Shown: positions 12,628 to 31,608 of the stretch, one piece after another
How the letters are laid out: each line of letters begins with the position of its first letter
Numbering within the stretch: the first letter of the stretch is position 1
Virus genome (UHGV): UHGV-0120943
DNA: 33,468 nucleotides
Strand: one strand, 5' to 3'
DNA from: a virus
Notes under the pieces: model-generated
The model's database searches: none
What the model was told of the DNA's origin: nothing
What the model saw: only the letters and a program-made list of their open reading frames with translations
Translations under genes and position numbers: made by a program

Positions 12628-13176
12628 ATGGCAAGTCAGGCTGAGGTATCAGATCGTCGTCTGCGCGATCTCGCAAAACTTCCGGGAGCTCCAGTCCCAC
12701 AGGGACGTGGCGATTGGGAACTTGACGCATGGCGCCATTTTTATATTCGTTATCTCCGGAGCAATAGACGCGACACAACTAGTAATGACGAACCGGAAGC
12801 GGGGGACAATTCTCCCGAAAAAAATCGCGAGCAGTGGCTGAAAAATGAGGAACGACAGGAGCGAATCCTGATGGCACGAGTAAAACGCCGCATTCTCGCT
12901 AAACGTTACGCGCCAATTGAATTAATTAGCGTCGCTGTATCTCGCGTCGCCGTTGAATTACGTACCCGCGTCGAGTCGTGGCCACCACGATTGAAAAAGG
13001 TGTGGCCTGAAATGCCGCAGGAGGCGAGCAGTGTATTACGAGAGGAGCTGGCGATAGCCCTGAATGAACTGGCAGACATACGAGTCGACTTCAGCGATTA
13101 CGATGTCAGCGATATCGAACGCGATCTCGACAGGGTTGAATCCCTTGCGCGTGACGATACCGATGACGGGGGTTGA
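12628..13176 (+). CDS. Putative terminase small subunit (Nu1 position)
   Basis: 182-aa ORF directly upstream of and overlapping the gpA-like gene. Positional call; no strong motif match. Confidence 0.5.
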   Translation: MASQAEVSDRRLRDLAKLPGAPVPQGRGDWELDAWRHFYIRYLRSNRRDTTSNDEPEAGDNSPEKNREQWLKNEERQERILMARVKRRILAKRYAPIELISVAVSRVAVELRTRVESWPPRLKKVWPEMPQEASSVLREELAIALNELADIRVDFSDYDVSDIERDLDRVESLARDDTDDGG

Positions 13177-15025
13177 GTGGGCTGATAAATATTTTTATCT
13201 CCCTGAGGGCTCCAGCCACATCGCTGGCCACTGGACGACTCAGCCGGTCCAGGTAGTGATGCTCAATATGATGACTAACGACGCGATAAAAATCGTGTCT
13301 GTTCGCAAATCAGCTCGTCTCGGTTATACAAAAATACTCGTCGCGGCGCTGCTCTATTTCGCTGAGCACAAAAAACGTAGTGCCGTGGTCTATCAGCCTA
13401 TCGATGACGAATCGGATGGATTTGTCGCCGACGAGGTTGACCCCGCTATCGCCGAAATGCCGGTGATTCAGAAAATTTTCCCCGACTGGGATAAAAGCAA
13501 CGAGCGTAACAATCTCCAGCGTAAAGAAATGAACGGCGCGATTATTGATTTTCGCGGCGCGAGTACGCCAGGAAATTTCCGGCGACTAACGAAACAGGTT
13601 GTCGAGGGTGACGAAGTTGACGGCTGGCCGCTGGAAGTTGCCAAAAAAGGCAAAGGCGAGGGCTCGCCCATCGAACTGGCGCTCGTTCGAATTAAAGGGG
13701 CAGCGTACCCGAAGGCGATTTTCGGTTCGACACCGACAGTCACCGGTAAAAGTCATATCGAAATGTTGGAAGACGCTGCTGATCTGACGTTTCGTTTTTA
13801 CCTGACATGTCCGCATTGTGGCGAGGAGCAGGTCCTGGTATTTGGTTTCGACGGTATCGAATACGGTCTCAAGTGGGATGACAGCCTGCAGACCAACGAG
13901 GCGAAATCGTCGTCCGCGTATTACCAGTGCTGCCACTGCCCGGAGCATTTTTACTATCGCGATCTCGAAAAAATGGAGCTCGGGGGGCGCTGGATAGCCG
14001 AGGACTGCACCTGGACCCGTGACGGCATTCATTTTTTTGATCATGACGGTGGCGTCGTTCGCGCGCCGAAACACGCTGCGATCGTGATAAACGCCCTGTA
14101 TTCACTGAATCTCGACGGCTGGGGCGAGATTGTCAGCGAGTGGCTGAAAGCGAAAGGCGACCCGCTCAAGGAAAAGACGTTTCATAACACGACGCTCGGC
14201 GAACTCTGGAGCGACGTGGCCAGCGAGCAGCTGGAGCACGATATTCTGGTTAATCGCCGGGAAAAATACGCCAGCCAGGTTCCTGACGGTGTTGTTTATA
14301 TAACCGGCGGCATCGACTCTCAGACGTCCGGGCGCTACGAGTGTTATGTGTGGGGCTGGGGAGCCGAGGAGGAGTGCTGGCTGATTGATAAAACAATCGT
14401 CCTCGGTCGCTACGACGAGGAGGACACGCTGCAGCGCGTCGACGGAGTGATTCGCAAACAATACCGGCGCAGCGACGGGACCACAATCGGCGTCAGTCGC
14501 TGGGCGTGGGATACCGGTGGTATAGATGCGCAGGTCGTTTATAACCGCTCGCTGAAACTCGGTCCGCTGTGGGTCATTCCAATTAAAGGTGCGAGCTCAT
14601 ACGGTCAGCCAGTCGTAAATATGCCGCGTACACGTAACGCGAATAAAGTCTATTTGTCGTTAATCGGTACTGATACGGCAAAAGATTTGCTCGCAATGCG
14701 CCTGCCGCTGGAACCCGATTCTAAATCGGCGACACCAGGTGCGATTCATTTTCCCAACGACGTCGAAATATTCGGCACAACAGAGGCAAAACAGCTCGTT
14801 TCTGAAGTTCTGATCCCGAAACTGATTAACGGTCGCGTCGTTTATCGCTGGGACAACCAGGGCCGGCGAAATGAAGCTCTCGACTGCTGGGTATACGGGC
14901 TGGCTGCGCTGCGTATCAGTAAAATTCGTTTCCAGCTCAATCTCGAGGCGCTCGCTGAGCAACGGAAAAAATCACAAAACAAACTGTCTCTCGAGGAGAT
15001 GGCGAGAATGCTCGGAGGGAGCTAA
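13064..15025 (+). CDS. Terminase large subunit (lambda gpA-like)
   Basis: Blocks matching lambda gpA: VEWADKYFYLPE, CPHCGEEQ, IPIKGASSYGQPV, GTDTAKD, NEALDCWVYGLAALRIS. True start may be an internal Met at about 13103 or 13163. Confidence 0.9.
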   Translation: MNWQTYESTSAITMSAISNAISTGLNPLRVTIPMTGVEWADKYFYLPEGSSHIAGHWTTQPVQVVMLNMMTNDAIKIVSVRKSARLGYTKILVAALLYFAEHKKRSAVVYQPIDDESDGFVADEVDPAIAEMPVIQKIFPDWDKSNERNNLQRKEMNGAIIDFRGASTPGNFRRLTKQVVEGDEVDGWPLEVAKKGKGEGSPIELALVRIKGAAYPKAIFGSTPTVTGKSHIEMLEDAADLTFRFYLTCPHCGEEQVLVFGFDGIEYGLKWDDSLQTNEAKSSSAYYQCCHCPEHFYYRDLEKMELGGRWIAEDCTWTRDGIHFFDHDGGVVRAPKHAAIVINALYSLNLDGWGEIVSEWLKAKGDPLKEKTFHNTTLGELWSDVASEQLEHDILVNRREKYASQVPDGVVYITGGIDSQTSGRYECYVWGWGAEEECWLIDKTIVLGRYDEEDTLQRVDGVIRKQYRRSDGTTIGVSRWAWDTGGIDAQVVYNRSLKLGPLWVIPIKGASSYGQPVVNMPRTRNANKVYLSLIGTDTAKDLLAMRLPLEPDSKSATPGAIHFPNDVEIFGTTEAKQLVSEVLIPKLINGRVVYRWDNQGRRNEALDCWVYGLAALRISKIRFQLNLEALAEQRKKSQNKLSLEEMARMLGGS

Positions 15026-15258
15026 TGACCGCGCGCGAGGTTTTAACAGAACGGCTGCTGGAAGCGGAAATCGCTCTGCACAAATTATTAACGGGTAAAT
15101 CGACCGTGTCGCTGTCTCACGGCGATTCAGCGGGAAATAACCGGAGCTATCAGTACTCCCAGGCGAGTATTGAACAGCTCCGAACGTACATTATCGAGCT
15201 GAAATCACAGCTCGGTCTGAGTACGGGACGCCGCCGTCCCGTGGGAGTTCGATTATGA
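15025..15258 (+). CDS. Head-tail joining protein (lambda gpW-like)
   Basis: 77 aa; LHKLLTGK ... LRTYIIELKSQLG ... RRRP parallels lambda gpW (LHDLMTGK ... LKKYIAELEVQTG ... RRRGP). Confidence 0.8.
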   Translation: MTAREVLTERLLEAEIALHKLLTGKSTVSLSHGDSAGNNRSYQYSQASIEQLRTYIIELKSQLGLSTGRRRPVGVRL

Positions 15259-30348: not shown

Positions 30349-30561
30349 ATGATTACATATACGACGCGGGACGGGGACCGTCTCGATCAAATCTGCCTCG
30401 CGGTCTACGGGAGAGCGTCAAAAACGACAGAGACTGTTTTATATCAGGTTTCGAATTACGGCGTAACTGATATGTATACCGTGTTTCGTGCTGGAGAAAA
30501 AATTGTTTTACCAGATATTGAACCAGAACCGGTTAAAAAAGAAACGCAATTATGGGATTGA
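30349..30561 (+). CDS. Tail protein X (P2 gpX-like)
   Basis: 70 aa; TRDGDRLDQICLAVYGR ... VLPDIEPEP parallels P2 gpX. Confidence 0.8.
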   Translation: MITYTTRDGDRLDQICLAVYGRASKTTETVLYQVSNYGVTDMYTVFRAGEKIVLPDIEPEPVKKETQLWD

Positions 30562-30564
30562 TGA

Positions 30565-31608
30565 ATGAGTGATTACGTAAATACTGGCGTGGAAGCATGG
30601 AAGCCCAATTTTTATATATCTGCTGATAATGAAAACATCACGGAAAAAATAAGAAAAGGTTTGATCAATATCACGCTCACAGATTATGGCGGTTCGAGTA
30701 AACAGACAGACGAATTACGCGTAGCTATCGTTTCTGAAACACTGAAAATTCCGGCCCGTGGTGTGAAAATCAGTCTTGGGCTCGGTTTCGGTAATCAGAT
30801 AATTGATAAAGGTATATACATCGTTGATGGTGCGAGCAGTGGCGGGGAACCCCGGGTAGTTGATTTCACAGCAAAAGCGGCTCCGATGAACGCGTCAAAA
30901 GGCGCTCCGACAGTTCAGAGCAAAAAGACTCGCTCCTGGAGCGACGTCACTGTCAGCGATATCGTTGCGACAATAGCGAGCGATAACGGGCTTAAACCTC
31001 GCGTATCAAAGCGGTTTGCAGACAACATTATCACGCAGCTCGATCAAGTCGGTGAGTCAGATATGCACCTGATGTCGAGACTAGCAACACGATTCGATAC
31101 GGTGAGCAAACCCGCAGGAGGGTACTGGATATTCCTGCCGCGCGGCGCGGGCGAATCAGTTAGCGGTGCTCCGCTCCAGCACTACACGCTAACTCGTCGT
31201 GATAACTCCAGCTGGGGCTATTCGAGAAATGGACAAAGCGGTGATAGTGGCGGTGGTGGCGAAAATCCGGAGCCGACGTATCTGATTAAATATCACGACA
31301 CAGCAACTGGGCAGATCAAAGAATTGCGGACAGGTAGTGGCGGCGAACCTGTCATTGAATGGCCGGCAGTTGAGCCGTCGCTCGACGCAGCGAAAGAAGC
31401 TGCACCAGGGCTCAAGGGCGGTGCAGCTAAAAAAGAGTTCTCTATGACGTACACGACGCCAGCGACGCTCGATTTAGTGTCGCTGACAGCAGAATGCAAA
31501 GTCACAACTCAAGGATTCGGGACCGAGGAGGACCGGGACTGGACTATCAACACGCTGAGCCTGACGCTTGCTGAAAACGGCTTTTCGGTTCGACTGTCTC
31601 TGGAGTAA
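30565..31608 (+). CDS. Tail protein D (P2 gpD-like)
   Basis: 347-aa ORF at the end of the tail cluster, after U and X. Confidence 0.85.
   Translation: MSDYVNTGVEAWKPNFYISADNENITEKIRKGLINITLTDYGGSSKQTDELRVAIVSETLKIPARGVKISLGLGFGNQIIDKGIYIVDGASSGGEPRVVDFTAKAAPMNASKGAPTVQSKKTRSWSDVTVSDIVATIASDNGLKPRVSKRFADNIITQLDQVGESDMHLMSRLATRFDTVSKPAGGYWIFLPRGAGESVSGAPLQHYTLTRRDNSSWGYSRNGQSGDSGGGGENPEPTYLIKYHDTATGQIKELRTGSGGEPVIEWPAVEPSLDAAKEAAPGLKGGAAKKEFSMTYTTPATLDLVSLTAECKVTTQGFGTEEDRDWTINTLSLTLAENGFSVRLSLE

Follow-up and report, generated by a model that had tools for sequence, protein, structure and literature searches.

The window analysed here, the whole 33,468-nt stretch of UHGV virus genome UHGV-0120943, carries a single block of 23 virion genes at positions 12628-31608, all in one direction. 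In all likelihood, these are the complete and apparently intact particle-building genes of a temperate myovirus prophage. The lineage is an established one; it very probably includes Vibrio phage Valp1 and the prophages of E. coli that were deposited under the name vB_EcoM-705R4, with Wolbachia WO as a more distant member. Profile and pairwise homology agree in supporting a cos head block of lambda type with a P2-type contractile tail block downstream of it, as the initial annotation had proposed. The first ten genes, namely the small terminase, A, W, B, C, D, E, FI, FII and a neck protein of the gpZ family, are lambda-type and keep the lambda order, while the remaining 13 correspond to a contractile tail of the P2/R-pyocin type: collar, V, W, J, I, fibre, sheath, tube, E/E', tape measure, U, X and D. 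This head-tail pairing is already catalogued and belongs to a common Escherichia prophage family; it is not new. Because the same arrangement occurs gene for gene in Valp1, and also in Wolbachia WO and Xylella phages, the join is neither a recent nor a local mosaic event.

Terminase genes and the cos region

The left edge of the block and its upstream flank contain the following features.

12082..12260, + strand: remnant of a different small-terminase gene with an in-frame stop inside, reading MAKPNWGALQHQFLADHAKTGISPKEWCDA, stop, GLSYATARRRIK
12548..12559, + strand: candidate cosN, GGGTCGGTAGAC, inside a conserved non-coding cos region (about 12453-12627)
12628..13176, + strand: small terminase subunit in the Nu1 position (phrog_57, 3.3e-35)
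13064..15025, + strand: large terminase, gpA type (GpA_ATPase PF05876, 3.6e-46; GpA_nuclease PF20454, 2.5e-63)

The remnant matches two small-terminase families, phrog_51 (6e-15) and phrog_370 (5e-14), and aligns with a stretch of E. coli HCP5S3 annotated as a frameshifted terminase-small-subunit pseudogene. The candidate cosN, proposed by homology, lines up column by column with the left end of lambda (GGGCGGCGACCT) and likewise with the adapter-flanked 12-mer that terminates Valp1 (GGGGCATGACCT). The intact gene in the position that the initial annotation assigned to Nu1 does encode a small terminase, but membership of the Nu1 family is not demonstrable: there is no Pfam Nu1 match, and BLASTP against Nu1 gives 21% identity over 53 residues (E 0.01). 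The large terminase is 43% identical to lambda A by BLASTP, and its gene overlaps that of the small subunit by 113 nt, in agreement with the Valp1 annotation.

Head and neck genes

Downstream of the terminase genes, the head and neck are encoded as follows.

15025..15258, + strand: gpW head-tail adaptor (PF02831, 6e-16; 35% identical to lambda W)
15255..16829, + strand: portal, lambda gpB family (PF05136, 2.3e-90; 64% identical to lambda B)
16829..18139, + strand: S49 prohead protease/scaffold, gpC type (PF01343, 1.2e-38; 55% to lambda C)
18139..18468, + strand: head decoration protein, gpD type (PF02924, 3.6e-07; 30.8 bits, cut-off 29.1; 38% to lambda D)
18527..19561, + strand: major capsid protein, gpE type (PF03864, 2.6e-60; 57% identical to lambda E)
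19596..20009, + strand: FI-type DNA-packaging protein (PF14000, 2.6e-10; phrog_92, 9e-31; 35% to lambda FI)
20006..20386, + strand: FII-type head closure/head-tail attachment protein (Phage_attach PF05354, 3.9e-09; phrog_82, common to lambda FII)
20417..21097, + strand: gpZ-family tail completion/Neck1 protein (phrog_27, 7.8e-42, full length)
21094..21630, + strand: collar-like protein, homologue of the R2-pyocin collar PA0615 (phrog_1072)

All the genes named in the initial annotation, head and tail alike, lie where it placed them, the head genes in lambda order, and their family matches are far beyond chance. Identities to lambda come from BLASTP, except that the FII and Z proteins resemble theirs at profile level only. 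The gpZ-family gene, overlooked in the initial annotation, starts only 30 nt after FII. Its product has no Pfam match and no BLAST match to lambda Z; lambda gpZ matches phrog_27 too (3.2e-69), and the window protein is 33-36% identical to the same-position proteins of Valp1, Chris1 and KA2-1. The collar-like protein matches 6u5f_A at E 0.008 as a single sequence and at E 7.4e-10, over nearly its full length, as a 12-homologue profile. The neck is thus occupied by a lambda gpZ-family protein together with a PA0615 homologue.

Contractile tail genes

The tail genes, with one inserted gene on the opposite strand, are listed below.

21611..22513, + strand: baseplate spike gpV (PF04717, 3.2e-12; 35% to P2 V over the N-terminal 117 residues)
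22468..22857, + strand: baseplate wedge gpW/gp25 (PF04965, 1.9e-15; 37% identical to P2 W); true start probably near 22516, judging from a relative's annotation
22854..23774, + strand: baseplate gpJ (PF04865, 5.3e-21; 40% identical to P2 J)
23777..24403, + strand: baseplate gpI (P2_I PF09684, 2.4e-37; 34% identical to P2 I)
24396..25601, + strand: tail fibre with an N-terminal collar domain common to P2 H (PF12571, 2.5e-31)
25614..27113, + strand: contractile tail sheath (two domains, PF04984 and PF17482; 35% identical to P2 FI)
27131..27643, + strand: tail tube, FII type (PF04985, 1.9e-22)
27656..28068, + strand: tail assembly chaperone gpE (27656-27937) with -1-frame extension E' (TAC_7 PF10109, 2.1e-16)
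28046..29686, + strand: tape measure protein, 546 residues (between E/E' and U; phrog_3654, 4.6e-249)
29683..30111, + strand: gpU-type tail protein (PF06995, 1.2e-32; 36% identical to P2 U); probable ATG at 29689
30090..30350, - strand: moron between U and X, encoding an 86-residue superinfection-immunity-family membrane protein (PF14373, 5.8e-11)
30349..30561, + strand: gpX, LysM-type tail protein X (PF05489, 5.9e-15; 39% identical to P2 X)
30565..31608, + strand: gpD-type baseplate hub/late control protein D (phrog_52, 3e-92; PF05954 (GPD) weak, 23.5 bits)

Homology to P2 and R2 pyocin extends over V, W, J, I, the fibre N-terminus, sheath, tube, the gpE chaperone, U, X and D, and the solved R2-pyocin proteins are matched by the window collar and sheath. 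The sheath is homologous to PA0622, the pyocin sheath (3j9q, 6.8e-48), and no homologue of lambda U, V, G or H occurs in the window, which places the tail outside the non-contractile families. The pyocin locus (PA0615-PA0628) runs collar-V-W-J-I-fibre-sheath-tube-E-T-U-X-D, the same order as the window tail. Unlike the pyocin, the window carries a full head module. The P2-type order proposed earlier holds for the P2/R-pyocin class but not for P2 proper. Neither R, S, G and Ogr nor the P2 capsid genes Q, P, O, N, M and L were found in the window, and X lies between U and D, whereas in P2 it lies upstream of the lysis genes. Identity to P2 tail proteins is 25-40% overall, and the window sheath contains an insertion of about 115 residues relative to P2 FI. 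"P2-like" is therefore best read here in the wider sense of the P2/R-pyocin class of tails.

PHROG hits and position, more than Pfam, underlie two assignments. The tape measure has no match in the Pfam search and is 34% identical to the same-position proteins of Valp1 and Chris1, while the gpD-type protein is 25% identical to P2 D over nearly its full length. For E', the -1 frame stays open over 56 codons (27898-28068), and Valp1, Chris1 and P2 E' all conserve its peptide motif. E/E' shows no canonical X_XXY_YYZ heptamer; a candidate site for the slip is A_AAG at 27907-27910.

Fibre and sheath are only 12 nt apart, so no chaperone ORF lies between them. The initial annotation was thus right that no separate assembly chaperone gene follows the fibre, but a chaperone-derived domain is fused to the fibre itself. 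Its C-terminal ~70 residues (DNA 25374-25586) are an in-frame copy of a Tfa-chaperone N-terminal domain: residues 330-399 align with residues 3-65 of the product of the 129-residue ORF downstream of the 705R4 fibre gene (38.6% identity, E 3e-13). The same domain is also N-terminal in small proteins that match Caudo_TAP.

Relatives in E. coli and beyond

The closest relatives are E. coli prophages. Escherichia phage vB_EcoM-705R4 (ON470624) is about 93% identical to the window in DNA across 94% of the block, and four deposited phage records lie at about that identity. Of 5426 complete E. coli genomes, about 454 carry similar prophages (~93% DNA identity), and in 442 of these the match extends over at least 80% of the block; carriers of 705R4-related prophages include ST131 strains. 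In the one genome examined, the prophage adjoins yecA, and since 705R4-type GenBank records contain this host gene, they are not clean proof of packaged genomes. Protein identity between 705R4 and the window is 91-99% for nearly every gene, and the upstream Q/lysis region and downstream lipoprotein gene are shared with 705R4 and related prophages. The distal half of the fibre, in contrast, is unrelated. The 705R4-type prophages (427 genomes) encode a 394-residue fibre and the separate 129-residue ORF, whereas the window allele, fused and without that ORF, occurs in only 4 of the 5426 genomes. The window also differs in its 240-bp U-X insert, which encodes the superinfection-immunity-family protein (this stretch, 30109-30349, is absent from relatives L001 and L003), and in an additional Bro-N gene at 32239-32994.

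Vibrio phage Vb_VaM_Valp1 (OR500391), a telomere-type temperate myovirus, is collinear with the window gene for gene from small terminase to gpD and has a homologous cos region. Protein identity is 28-59% across both blocks: small terminase 47%, large terminase 59%, portal 48%, protease 37%, capsid 34%, gpZ-like protein 36% and collar 28%, then sheath 41%, tube 37%, U 46%, X 46% and D 39%. Electron microscopy showed Valp1 to be a myovirus whose head measures 60 nm and whose contractile tail measures 90 x 20 nm (PMC11054321). The Valp1 prophage is a linear plasmid with protelomerase and ParB, while the window belongs to a lambdoid prophage that has a Q antiterminator; Valp1 also differs from the window in a much longer fibre and in additional baseplate genes, one of them for a PAAR protein.

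Wolbachia WO and Xylella XfP1/XfP2 phages have been called lambda/P2 chimeras. In them the lambda-type terminase, portal and minor capsid C genes precede gpZ, a single hypothetical gene and a baseplate set that opens with V and W; sheath, tube, tape measure, U, X and D come after it (PMC3235987). The window shares with them the succession of Z, one hypothetical gene and V (PMC3235987). Their hosts are distant and identity is much lower, and the WO gene order was compared from the published description; the WO sheath is homologous to the window sheath (36% identity over 54% of the protein). WO, unlike the window, carries eukaryotic-association modules and ankyrin genes.

Lambda itself shares the gene order from Nu1 through Z and a similar cosN with its flanking sequence; the portal, protease and capsid proteins are 55-64% identical and their genes 64-70% identical in DNA. 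The window differs in a small terminase not recognisably Nu1, in a gpZ homologue found at profile level only, and in lacking U, V, G/GT and H homologues, every tail gene being placed in P2-type families by profile searches.

Base composition and the history of the join

GC content is 0.546 in the head (12628-20386) and 0.470 in the neck and tail (20417-31608), with mean GC3 of 0.573 and 0.447 (Mann-Whitney p = 0.0007) and local highs within the tail at J (0.511) and D (0.509). The drop had been placed at 21800-25600; it instead begins at the head/neck boundary (about 20.4 kb) and spans the whole tail, so composition points to a boundary there and not in the baseplate/fibre region. This 7.6-point contrast exceeds that in Valp1, KA2-1, Chris1, P2 and lambda, so part of the recent history of the two halves may differ.

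Such a contrast would fit a lambda-like siphovirus head newly recombined with the tail of a resident P2-like prophage, or the reverse, with a young scar at ~20.4 kb. The portal, protease and capsid are nearer lambda (64, 55 and 57%) than Valp1, while both terminase subunits are nearer Valp1, and these mixed affinities indicate that at least the B-to-E segment was exchanged with the lambda gene pool. The dead small-terminase gene at 12082-12260 likewise shows module replacement at the left edge. However, the head-neck-tail order shared by Valp1 and Wolbachia WO makes the join of head and contractile tail old. The tail's low identity to P2 and its missing R, S, G and Ogr leave no evident P2-like donor, and gpZ-like and collar neck genes accompany the same tail type in KA2-1 and Chris1. 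A young junction is accordingly improbable.

Still less likely is a domesticated tailocin or defective prophage, in which only the tail block would function, as an R-type bacteriocin, and the head genes would be decaying cargo. The R-pyocin-like gene order, the collar and sheath homologies, and the IS in the large terminase gene or split D gene of some relatives fit such decay, but every ORF of the window block is full length, and the ten head and neck proteins are 93-100% identical to those of relatives. The head-tail joining proteins W, FII and gpZ-like are present, the cos-like region is conserved, and the many E. coli CRISPR spacers against this prophage family fit an infectious agent. Two unrelated tandem prophages or remnants, one supplying head genes and the other tail genes, would explain the composition step but can hardly be credited, given the 30-nt FII to gpZ-like gap, the lack of any integrase, att site, tRNA or regulatory gene between the halves, and the identical contiguous order in the isolated phage Valp1.

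Predicted particle assembly

Read as the intact virion block of a temperate myovirus, the genes suggest the following pathway. A Q antiterminator, holins and endolysin lie upstream, and the block, 3' of this lambdoid Q and lysis cassette, is probably expressed as one long late transcript, since its genes are tightly packed and co-directional and no Ogr-type activator is present. The gpA-type terminase and its small subunit would cut concatemers at the lambda-like cos just upstream, with 12548-12559 as the putative nicking site, and fill a gpE/gpD-type capsid through the gpB-type portal, the prohead being processed by the gpC-type S49 protease. Homologues of gpW and gpFII, assigned by family, would close the filled head, and the gpZ-family neck protein and PA0615 homologue would complete the contractile tail, assembled separately, at its head-proximal end. 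This tail would comprise the V/W/J/I baseplate, sheath, tube, E/E' chaperones, tape measure, U, X and D, and would measure roughly 80 nm, judging from tape-measure length. Its fibre bears the fused C-terminal Tfa N-domain (fibre-binding) in place of a separate downstream Tfa gene.

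Architecture of the virion block

The block at 12628-31608 is very probably the intact set of late genes of a temperate myovirus, with a lambda-type head followed by a pyocin/P2-type tail. Its 23 ORFs are tightly packed on one strand, and Pfam and PHROG scans give a virion function to every one of them. Two prophages in tandem, which could also place a head of one type beside a tail of another, are an improbable reading of this single compact run. The main features are as follows.

12628-31608, one strand: 23 co-directional virion genes
First nine genes of the block, lambda order: small terminase, gpA-type large terminase (TerL), gpW, portal, S49 protease gpC, gpD, gpE, FI and FII
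20417-21097, same strand: gpZ-like neck gene
21094-21630, same strand: collar gene, homologue of R2-pyocin PA0615
Tail half, same strand: V, W/gp25, J, I, fibre (24396-25601, with a P2 H-type collar N-terminus), sheath (25614-27113), tube, gpE-type chaperone, tape measure, U, X and D

Late transcription would be expected to depend on Q, and a lambda-type Q antiterminator is encoded upstream at 7793-8464. The lambda-type terminase would cleave cos and package the DNA into a lambda-type decorated capsid, whose W/FII connector would be docked by the gpZ-like and collar proteins to the pyocin/P2-type contractile tail.

Head and packaging genes

The initial annotation placed lambda-like head genes in lambda order, and Pfam, PHROG and BLASTP searches bear this out, at levels far above chance. 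The large terminase matches PF05876 (3.6e-46) and PF20454 (2.5e-63), so that both its ATPase and its endonuclease domain are present, and it is 43% identical to lambda A (647 residues, BLASTP). The lambda-family portal (PF05136), S49 protease (PF01343), decoration protein gpD (PF02924) and capsid protein gpE (PF03864) keep the lambda order, and the head completion set of gpW (PF02831), FI (PF14000) and FII (PF05354) is present. Pairwise BLASTP gives identities to lambda of 35% for W, 64% for B, 55% for C, 38% for D, 57% for E and 35% for FI. The portal, protease and capsid genes also match lambda as DNA, at 64-70% identity, and phrog_92 and phrog_82 (FI and FII) are common to the window and lambda. 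By phrog_57, the gene in the Nu1 position encodes a small terminase; a Pfam search gives it no Nu1 match, and BLASTP aligns it to Nu1 at only 21% over 53 residues (E 0.01).

Strong GC-rich hairpins with T runs behind them occupy short gaps inside the presumed late operon, at 18487-18506 (directly after D) and 19560-19577 (directly after E); they might tune expression or require Q-mediated read-through. In a consensus scan, promoter-like sites (21 against 23 expected) and terminator-like sites (28 against 23 expected) are overall at chance level.

The neck

Lambda collinearity extends one gene further, from Nu1 through Z, since the 226-residue protein of the gpZ-like gene matches phrog_27 over its full length (7.8e-42), the same family that lambda gpZ fits at 3.2e-69. 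Pfam and BLAST searches with this protein return no match. Pairwise BLAST ties neither this protein with lambda Z nor the small terminase with Nu1; such ties come from PHROG profiles alone, and the small terminase cannot be assigned to the Nu1 family on this evidence. The 178-residue collar protein is homologous to R2-pyocin PA0615: a single-sequence comparison gives E 0.008, and a profile of 12 homologues matches 6u5f_A at E 7.4e-10 over nearly its full length. Single-sequence searches of the PDB with the gpZ-like protein and the fibre give no match, and a word-indexed protein search finds few homologues for the collar protein or the fibre. The neck proteins of the window belong to phrog_27 and phrog_1072, whereas P2 R and S fall in phrog_65 and phrog_26. 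In practical terms, the window offers a neck pair, gpZ-like and pyocin-collar-like, that would fit a contractile tail to a lambda-type connector.

The contractile tail

V-W-J-I, sheath FI, tube FII, E/E', U, X and D all have Pfam matches and are 25-40% identical to P2, and the sheath matches the R2-pyocin sheath PA0622 (3j9q_A) at 6.8e-48. The tape measure has 546 residues. Lambda tail genes U, V, G and H, the four used as queries, have no tblastn or BLASTP match in the window.

These matches uphold the contractile part of the initial description of a P2-like contractile tail; the tail is not that of P2 proper. The window holds no match to the P2 tail completion genes R and S or to the late activator Ogr, and no significant match to the P2 capsid and packaging genes Q, P, O, N, M and L. 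G is likewise missing, and X, which in P2 lies upstream of the lysis genes, stands here between U and D. With these genes missing and X moved, "P2-like" is valid only as the broad P2/R-pyocin tail class, and the element is not a P2-family phage. R-type pyocins share the same P2-type tail cluster, including homologues of PA0615 and PA0622. Such pyocins are without head and packaging genes, whereas the window has a full, intact head module directly upstream of the tail; a tailocin with decaying head genes is therefore unlikely.

The E/E' region has an open -1 frame of 56 codons (27898-28068) that covers the final 13 gpE codons and runs into the beginning of the tape measure gene, and its peptide shares a motif with the -1-frame peptides of Vibrio phage Vb_VaM_Valp1 (Valp1, OR500391), Citrobacter phage Chris1 and P2 E'. 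No canonical X_XXY_YYZ slippery heptamer occurs in E/E', and A_AAG at 27907-27910 is a candidate slip site.

The sheath is longer than that of P2 (499 against 396 residues) through an insertion of about 115 residues (roughly 43-156) that neither P2 FI nor the alignment with the pyocin sheath contains and that probably forms an extra surface domain. Between U and X, on the minus strand at 30090-30350, lies a gene whose 86-residue membrane product falls in the superinfection-immunity family (PF14373, 5.8e-11); this 240-bp stretch differs from both relatives compared.

A chaperone domain within the fibre

The initial annotation found no tail-fibre assembly chaperone (Tfa) gene after the fibre. 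As to a separate gene this stands: the gap between fibre and sheath is 12 nt and holds no ORF. The fibre itself, however, carries a homologue of the Tfa N-terminal domain at its C-terminus. Its residues 330-399 (25374-25586) align at 38.6% identity (E 3e-13) with residues 3-65 of a 129-residue ORF located after the fibre gene of Escherichia phage vB_EcoM-705R4 (705R4, ON470624). At the fusion point the alignment has the 705R4 fibre ending in ...AIRIA and its Tfa starting with MISVDSFRKITNPVF, while the window continues without a break as ...ARRIPVGNINKFSNIKKPHYP.

When 1.84 billion representative proteins are searched exhaustively with HMMER, the domain turns up C-terminally in fibres (about 13 clusters, roughly 200-510 residues) and N-terminally in small proteins (about 10 clusters, 78-159 residues). 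Of the latter, three exceed the threshold of Pfam Caudo_TAP, a tail-fibre assembly family (41-42 bits against a cut-off of 22.1), mostly through their C-terminal halves, and two others have weak Phage_tail_APC matches. The Caudo_TAP matches mark the small proteins as Tfa-type and the shared domain as their N-terminal domain. With Tfa-type queries, the Caudo_TAP-type C-terminal halves find no match anywhere in the window, and the N-domains match only inside the fibre gene. In a passage of PMC9608196 citing North et al. 2019, fibre binding is given as the role of the variable Tfa N-domain and trimerisation as that of the conserved C-domain, and Mu Tfa is said to remain on the mature fibre.

The fused form appears to be kept rather than accidental, given its selection and its recurrence where Tfa is absent. 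Compared with the Escherichia whittamii allele, the fused domain has a dN/dS of 0.17 (dS 0.89). In one fused fibre of this prophage family, 50% identical, the sheath gene again comes directly next; another, in a Mu-like tail, has com and mom behind it and no Tfa; and a third (P0018), from a different genomic context, lacks any co-directional small ORF downstream. A split Tfa, by contrast, lies directly after its fibre. It is an evenly balanced judgement that the "missing" chaperone became part of the fibre, its N-domain fused in frame and the conserved Caudo_TAP oligomerisation domain and separate gene lost, in a recurrent arrangement under purifying selection. If these fibres fold with no Tfa acting in trans, they would be a natural experiment that parts N-domain capping or binding from C-domain trimerisation. 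The rare fused allele may bear on how Tfa acts and on the engineering of chaperone-independent fibres, and it is the sole feature of the block that may merit follow-up.

Relatives and the age of the mosaic

The combination of such a head with such a tail is neither new nor recent, and it is already known. Valp1, a much more distant relative than 705R4, is collinear gene by gene with the window from the small terminase to gpD, its two halves similarly diverged at 28-59% identity; by tblastn, complemented by the Valp1 annotation, 19 of the 23 genes are collinear across both halves, with no match for W, the D decoration protein, FI, the fibre or the tail assembly chaperone gpE. Electron micrographs of the isolated phage show a myovirus whose head measures 60 nm and whose contractile tail measures 90 x 20 nm (PMC11054321). 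Myovirus morphology is seen directly in Valp1 alone, and its micrographs give an answer by proxy to the electron microscopy proposed in the initial annotation. The window is a reminder that "lambda-like" head genes are no predictor of a siphovirus. According to PMC3235987, the virion modules of Wolbachia WO (after Masui et al.) and of Xylella XfP1/XfP2 are lambda/P2 chimeras, and the WO gene table there lists Z, one hypothetical gene and then V, the same order as in the window. With the architecture documented in Wolbachia, Xylella and Vibrio phages, the result mainly confirms a correct annotation.

Klebsiella phage KA2-1 and Chris1 have the neck and tail genes of the window together with gpA-type terminase and portal homologues that are 22-28% identical; no homologue of the window capsid or protease is detectable in either. 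Sharing the neck and tail and not the capsid and protease argues that the unit of gpZ-like gene, collar and tail travels as a block.

Composition and later exchange

GC content is 0.546 in the head and 0.470 in the neck and tail, and mean per-gene GC3 is 0.573 in the head against 0.447 in the neck and tail (Mann-Whitney p = 0.0007). The initial annotation had reported a GC drop at about 21800-25600. The drop is real, and that range is only part of it: the step falls at the boundary of FII and the gpZ-like gene, near 20.4 kb, and GC stays low to the end of the tail, with local highs at J and D. The head-tail contrast of 7.6 points is larger than the values of 1.3 in Valp1, 2.8 in KA2-1, 2.3 in Chris1, 5.1 in P2 and -0.5 in lambda. 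Even with this contrast, a recent recombination joining head to tail is unlikely beside the collinearity of both halves with Valp1.

Affinities within the head differ from gene to gene. The portal, protease and capsid are 64, 55 and 57% identical to lambda against 48, 37 and 34% to Valp1, whereas the small and large terminase subunits are 47% and 59% identical to Valp1, with lambda giving no significant match for the small subunit and 43% for the large. The head block at 13064-19561 is thus internally mosaic. Together, the lambda-near B-to-E genes and the GC contrast suggest that the B-to-E segment was later exchanged with the lambda gene pool on an old head/contractile-tail architecture.

The left edge of the block holds independent evidence for module replacement. 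Just upstream of the cos region, 12082-12260 is a dead N-terminal fragment of a small terminase with an in-frame stop; it belongs to the phrog_51/370 family, which differs from that of the live gene. E. coli relatives have kept the fragment, annotated there as a pseudogene, and it looks like a scar from the replacement of an earlier packaging module.

A candidate cos site

The non-coding region at about 12453-12627, upstream of the small terminase, lies inside DNA common to relatives at about 91-94% identity. In GenBank, the Valp1 record retains Illumina adapter at both termini (positions 1-26 at one and 1 to about 28 at the other), and the same 12-mer, GGGGCATGACCT, abuts the adapter at either end. 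By analogy with GGGCGGCGACCT of lambda, it can be read as filled-in 12-nt cohesive ends, a lambda-like feature that goes unmentioned in the Valp1 paper. In a MAFFT alignment, window positions 12548-12559 (GGGTCGGTAGAC) fall in the same columns as the lambda left end and the Valp1 terminal 12-mer, and both flanks are also alike, with TTTCCGG downstream and GGTCGC...GGGTCCTT(T)CCG upstream. The "cos-type" label of the initial annotation is therefore supported, with a predicted cosN at 12548-12559 that is precise enough to guide experiments.

Distribution and prophage ends

Genome searches show that this family is one of the commonest prophage families of E. coli. Four deposited records, 705R4 and its relatives, are about 93% identical over 88-94% of the block by megablast, and for most genes the proteins of the window share 91-99% identity with those of 705R4 and of the E. 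coli and E. whittamii prophages. Among complete E. coli genomes, megablast finds 583 records with matches; prophages account for 454 of them, at 90-95% identity, with at least 80% of the block covered in 442. The family thus occurs in about 8% of complete E. coli genomes, including ST131 strains. An E. whittamii copy with 91% DNA identity is the sole locus from a genome contig scan.

The other 129 E. coli records, at 99% identity or above, were considered as near-identical prophages and rejected; these genomes match the block through CRISPR spacers alone. Exact type I-E spacer matches in E. coli chromosomes fall at 25228-25259 and 23741-23776, and the spacer to 25228-25259, a protospacer with an AAG PAM at 25225-25227, occurs in 55 genomes. 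A 2025 paper reports 28 spacers of urological E. coli that hit the related phage 705R4 (PMC12736100), and E. coli CRISPR spacers often target the family.

In E. coli HCP5S3, the one E. coli genome whose flanks were examined, the prophage adjoins yecA and a tRNA-like gene. At the other edge, the final 57 bases of the window (33412-33468) match the stretch just downstream of a lipoprotein gene in 705R4 and HCP5S3, upstream of the tRNA-like gene and yecA, which probably puts the right end of the prophage close to the window edge. A Bro-N/antirepressor-type gene at 32239-32994 on the minus strand is missing from 705R4 and HCP5S3. At the left end of the prophage, 212-2154 holds a pair of genes that form a candidate anti-phage defence system (PADLOC PDC-M25A/B, 3e-157 and 5e-96). 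The first of them encodes an AAA_15/AAA_21 ATPase, and the pair adjoins an ImmA/IrrE-type peptidase gene at 3200-3688 on the minus strand.
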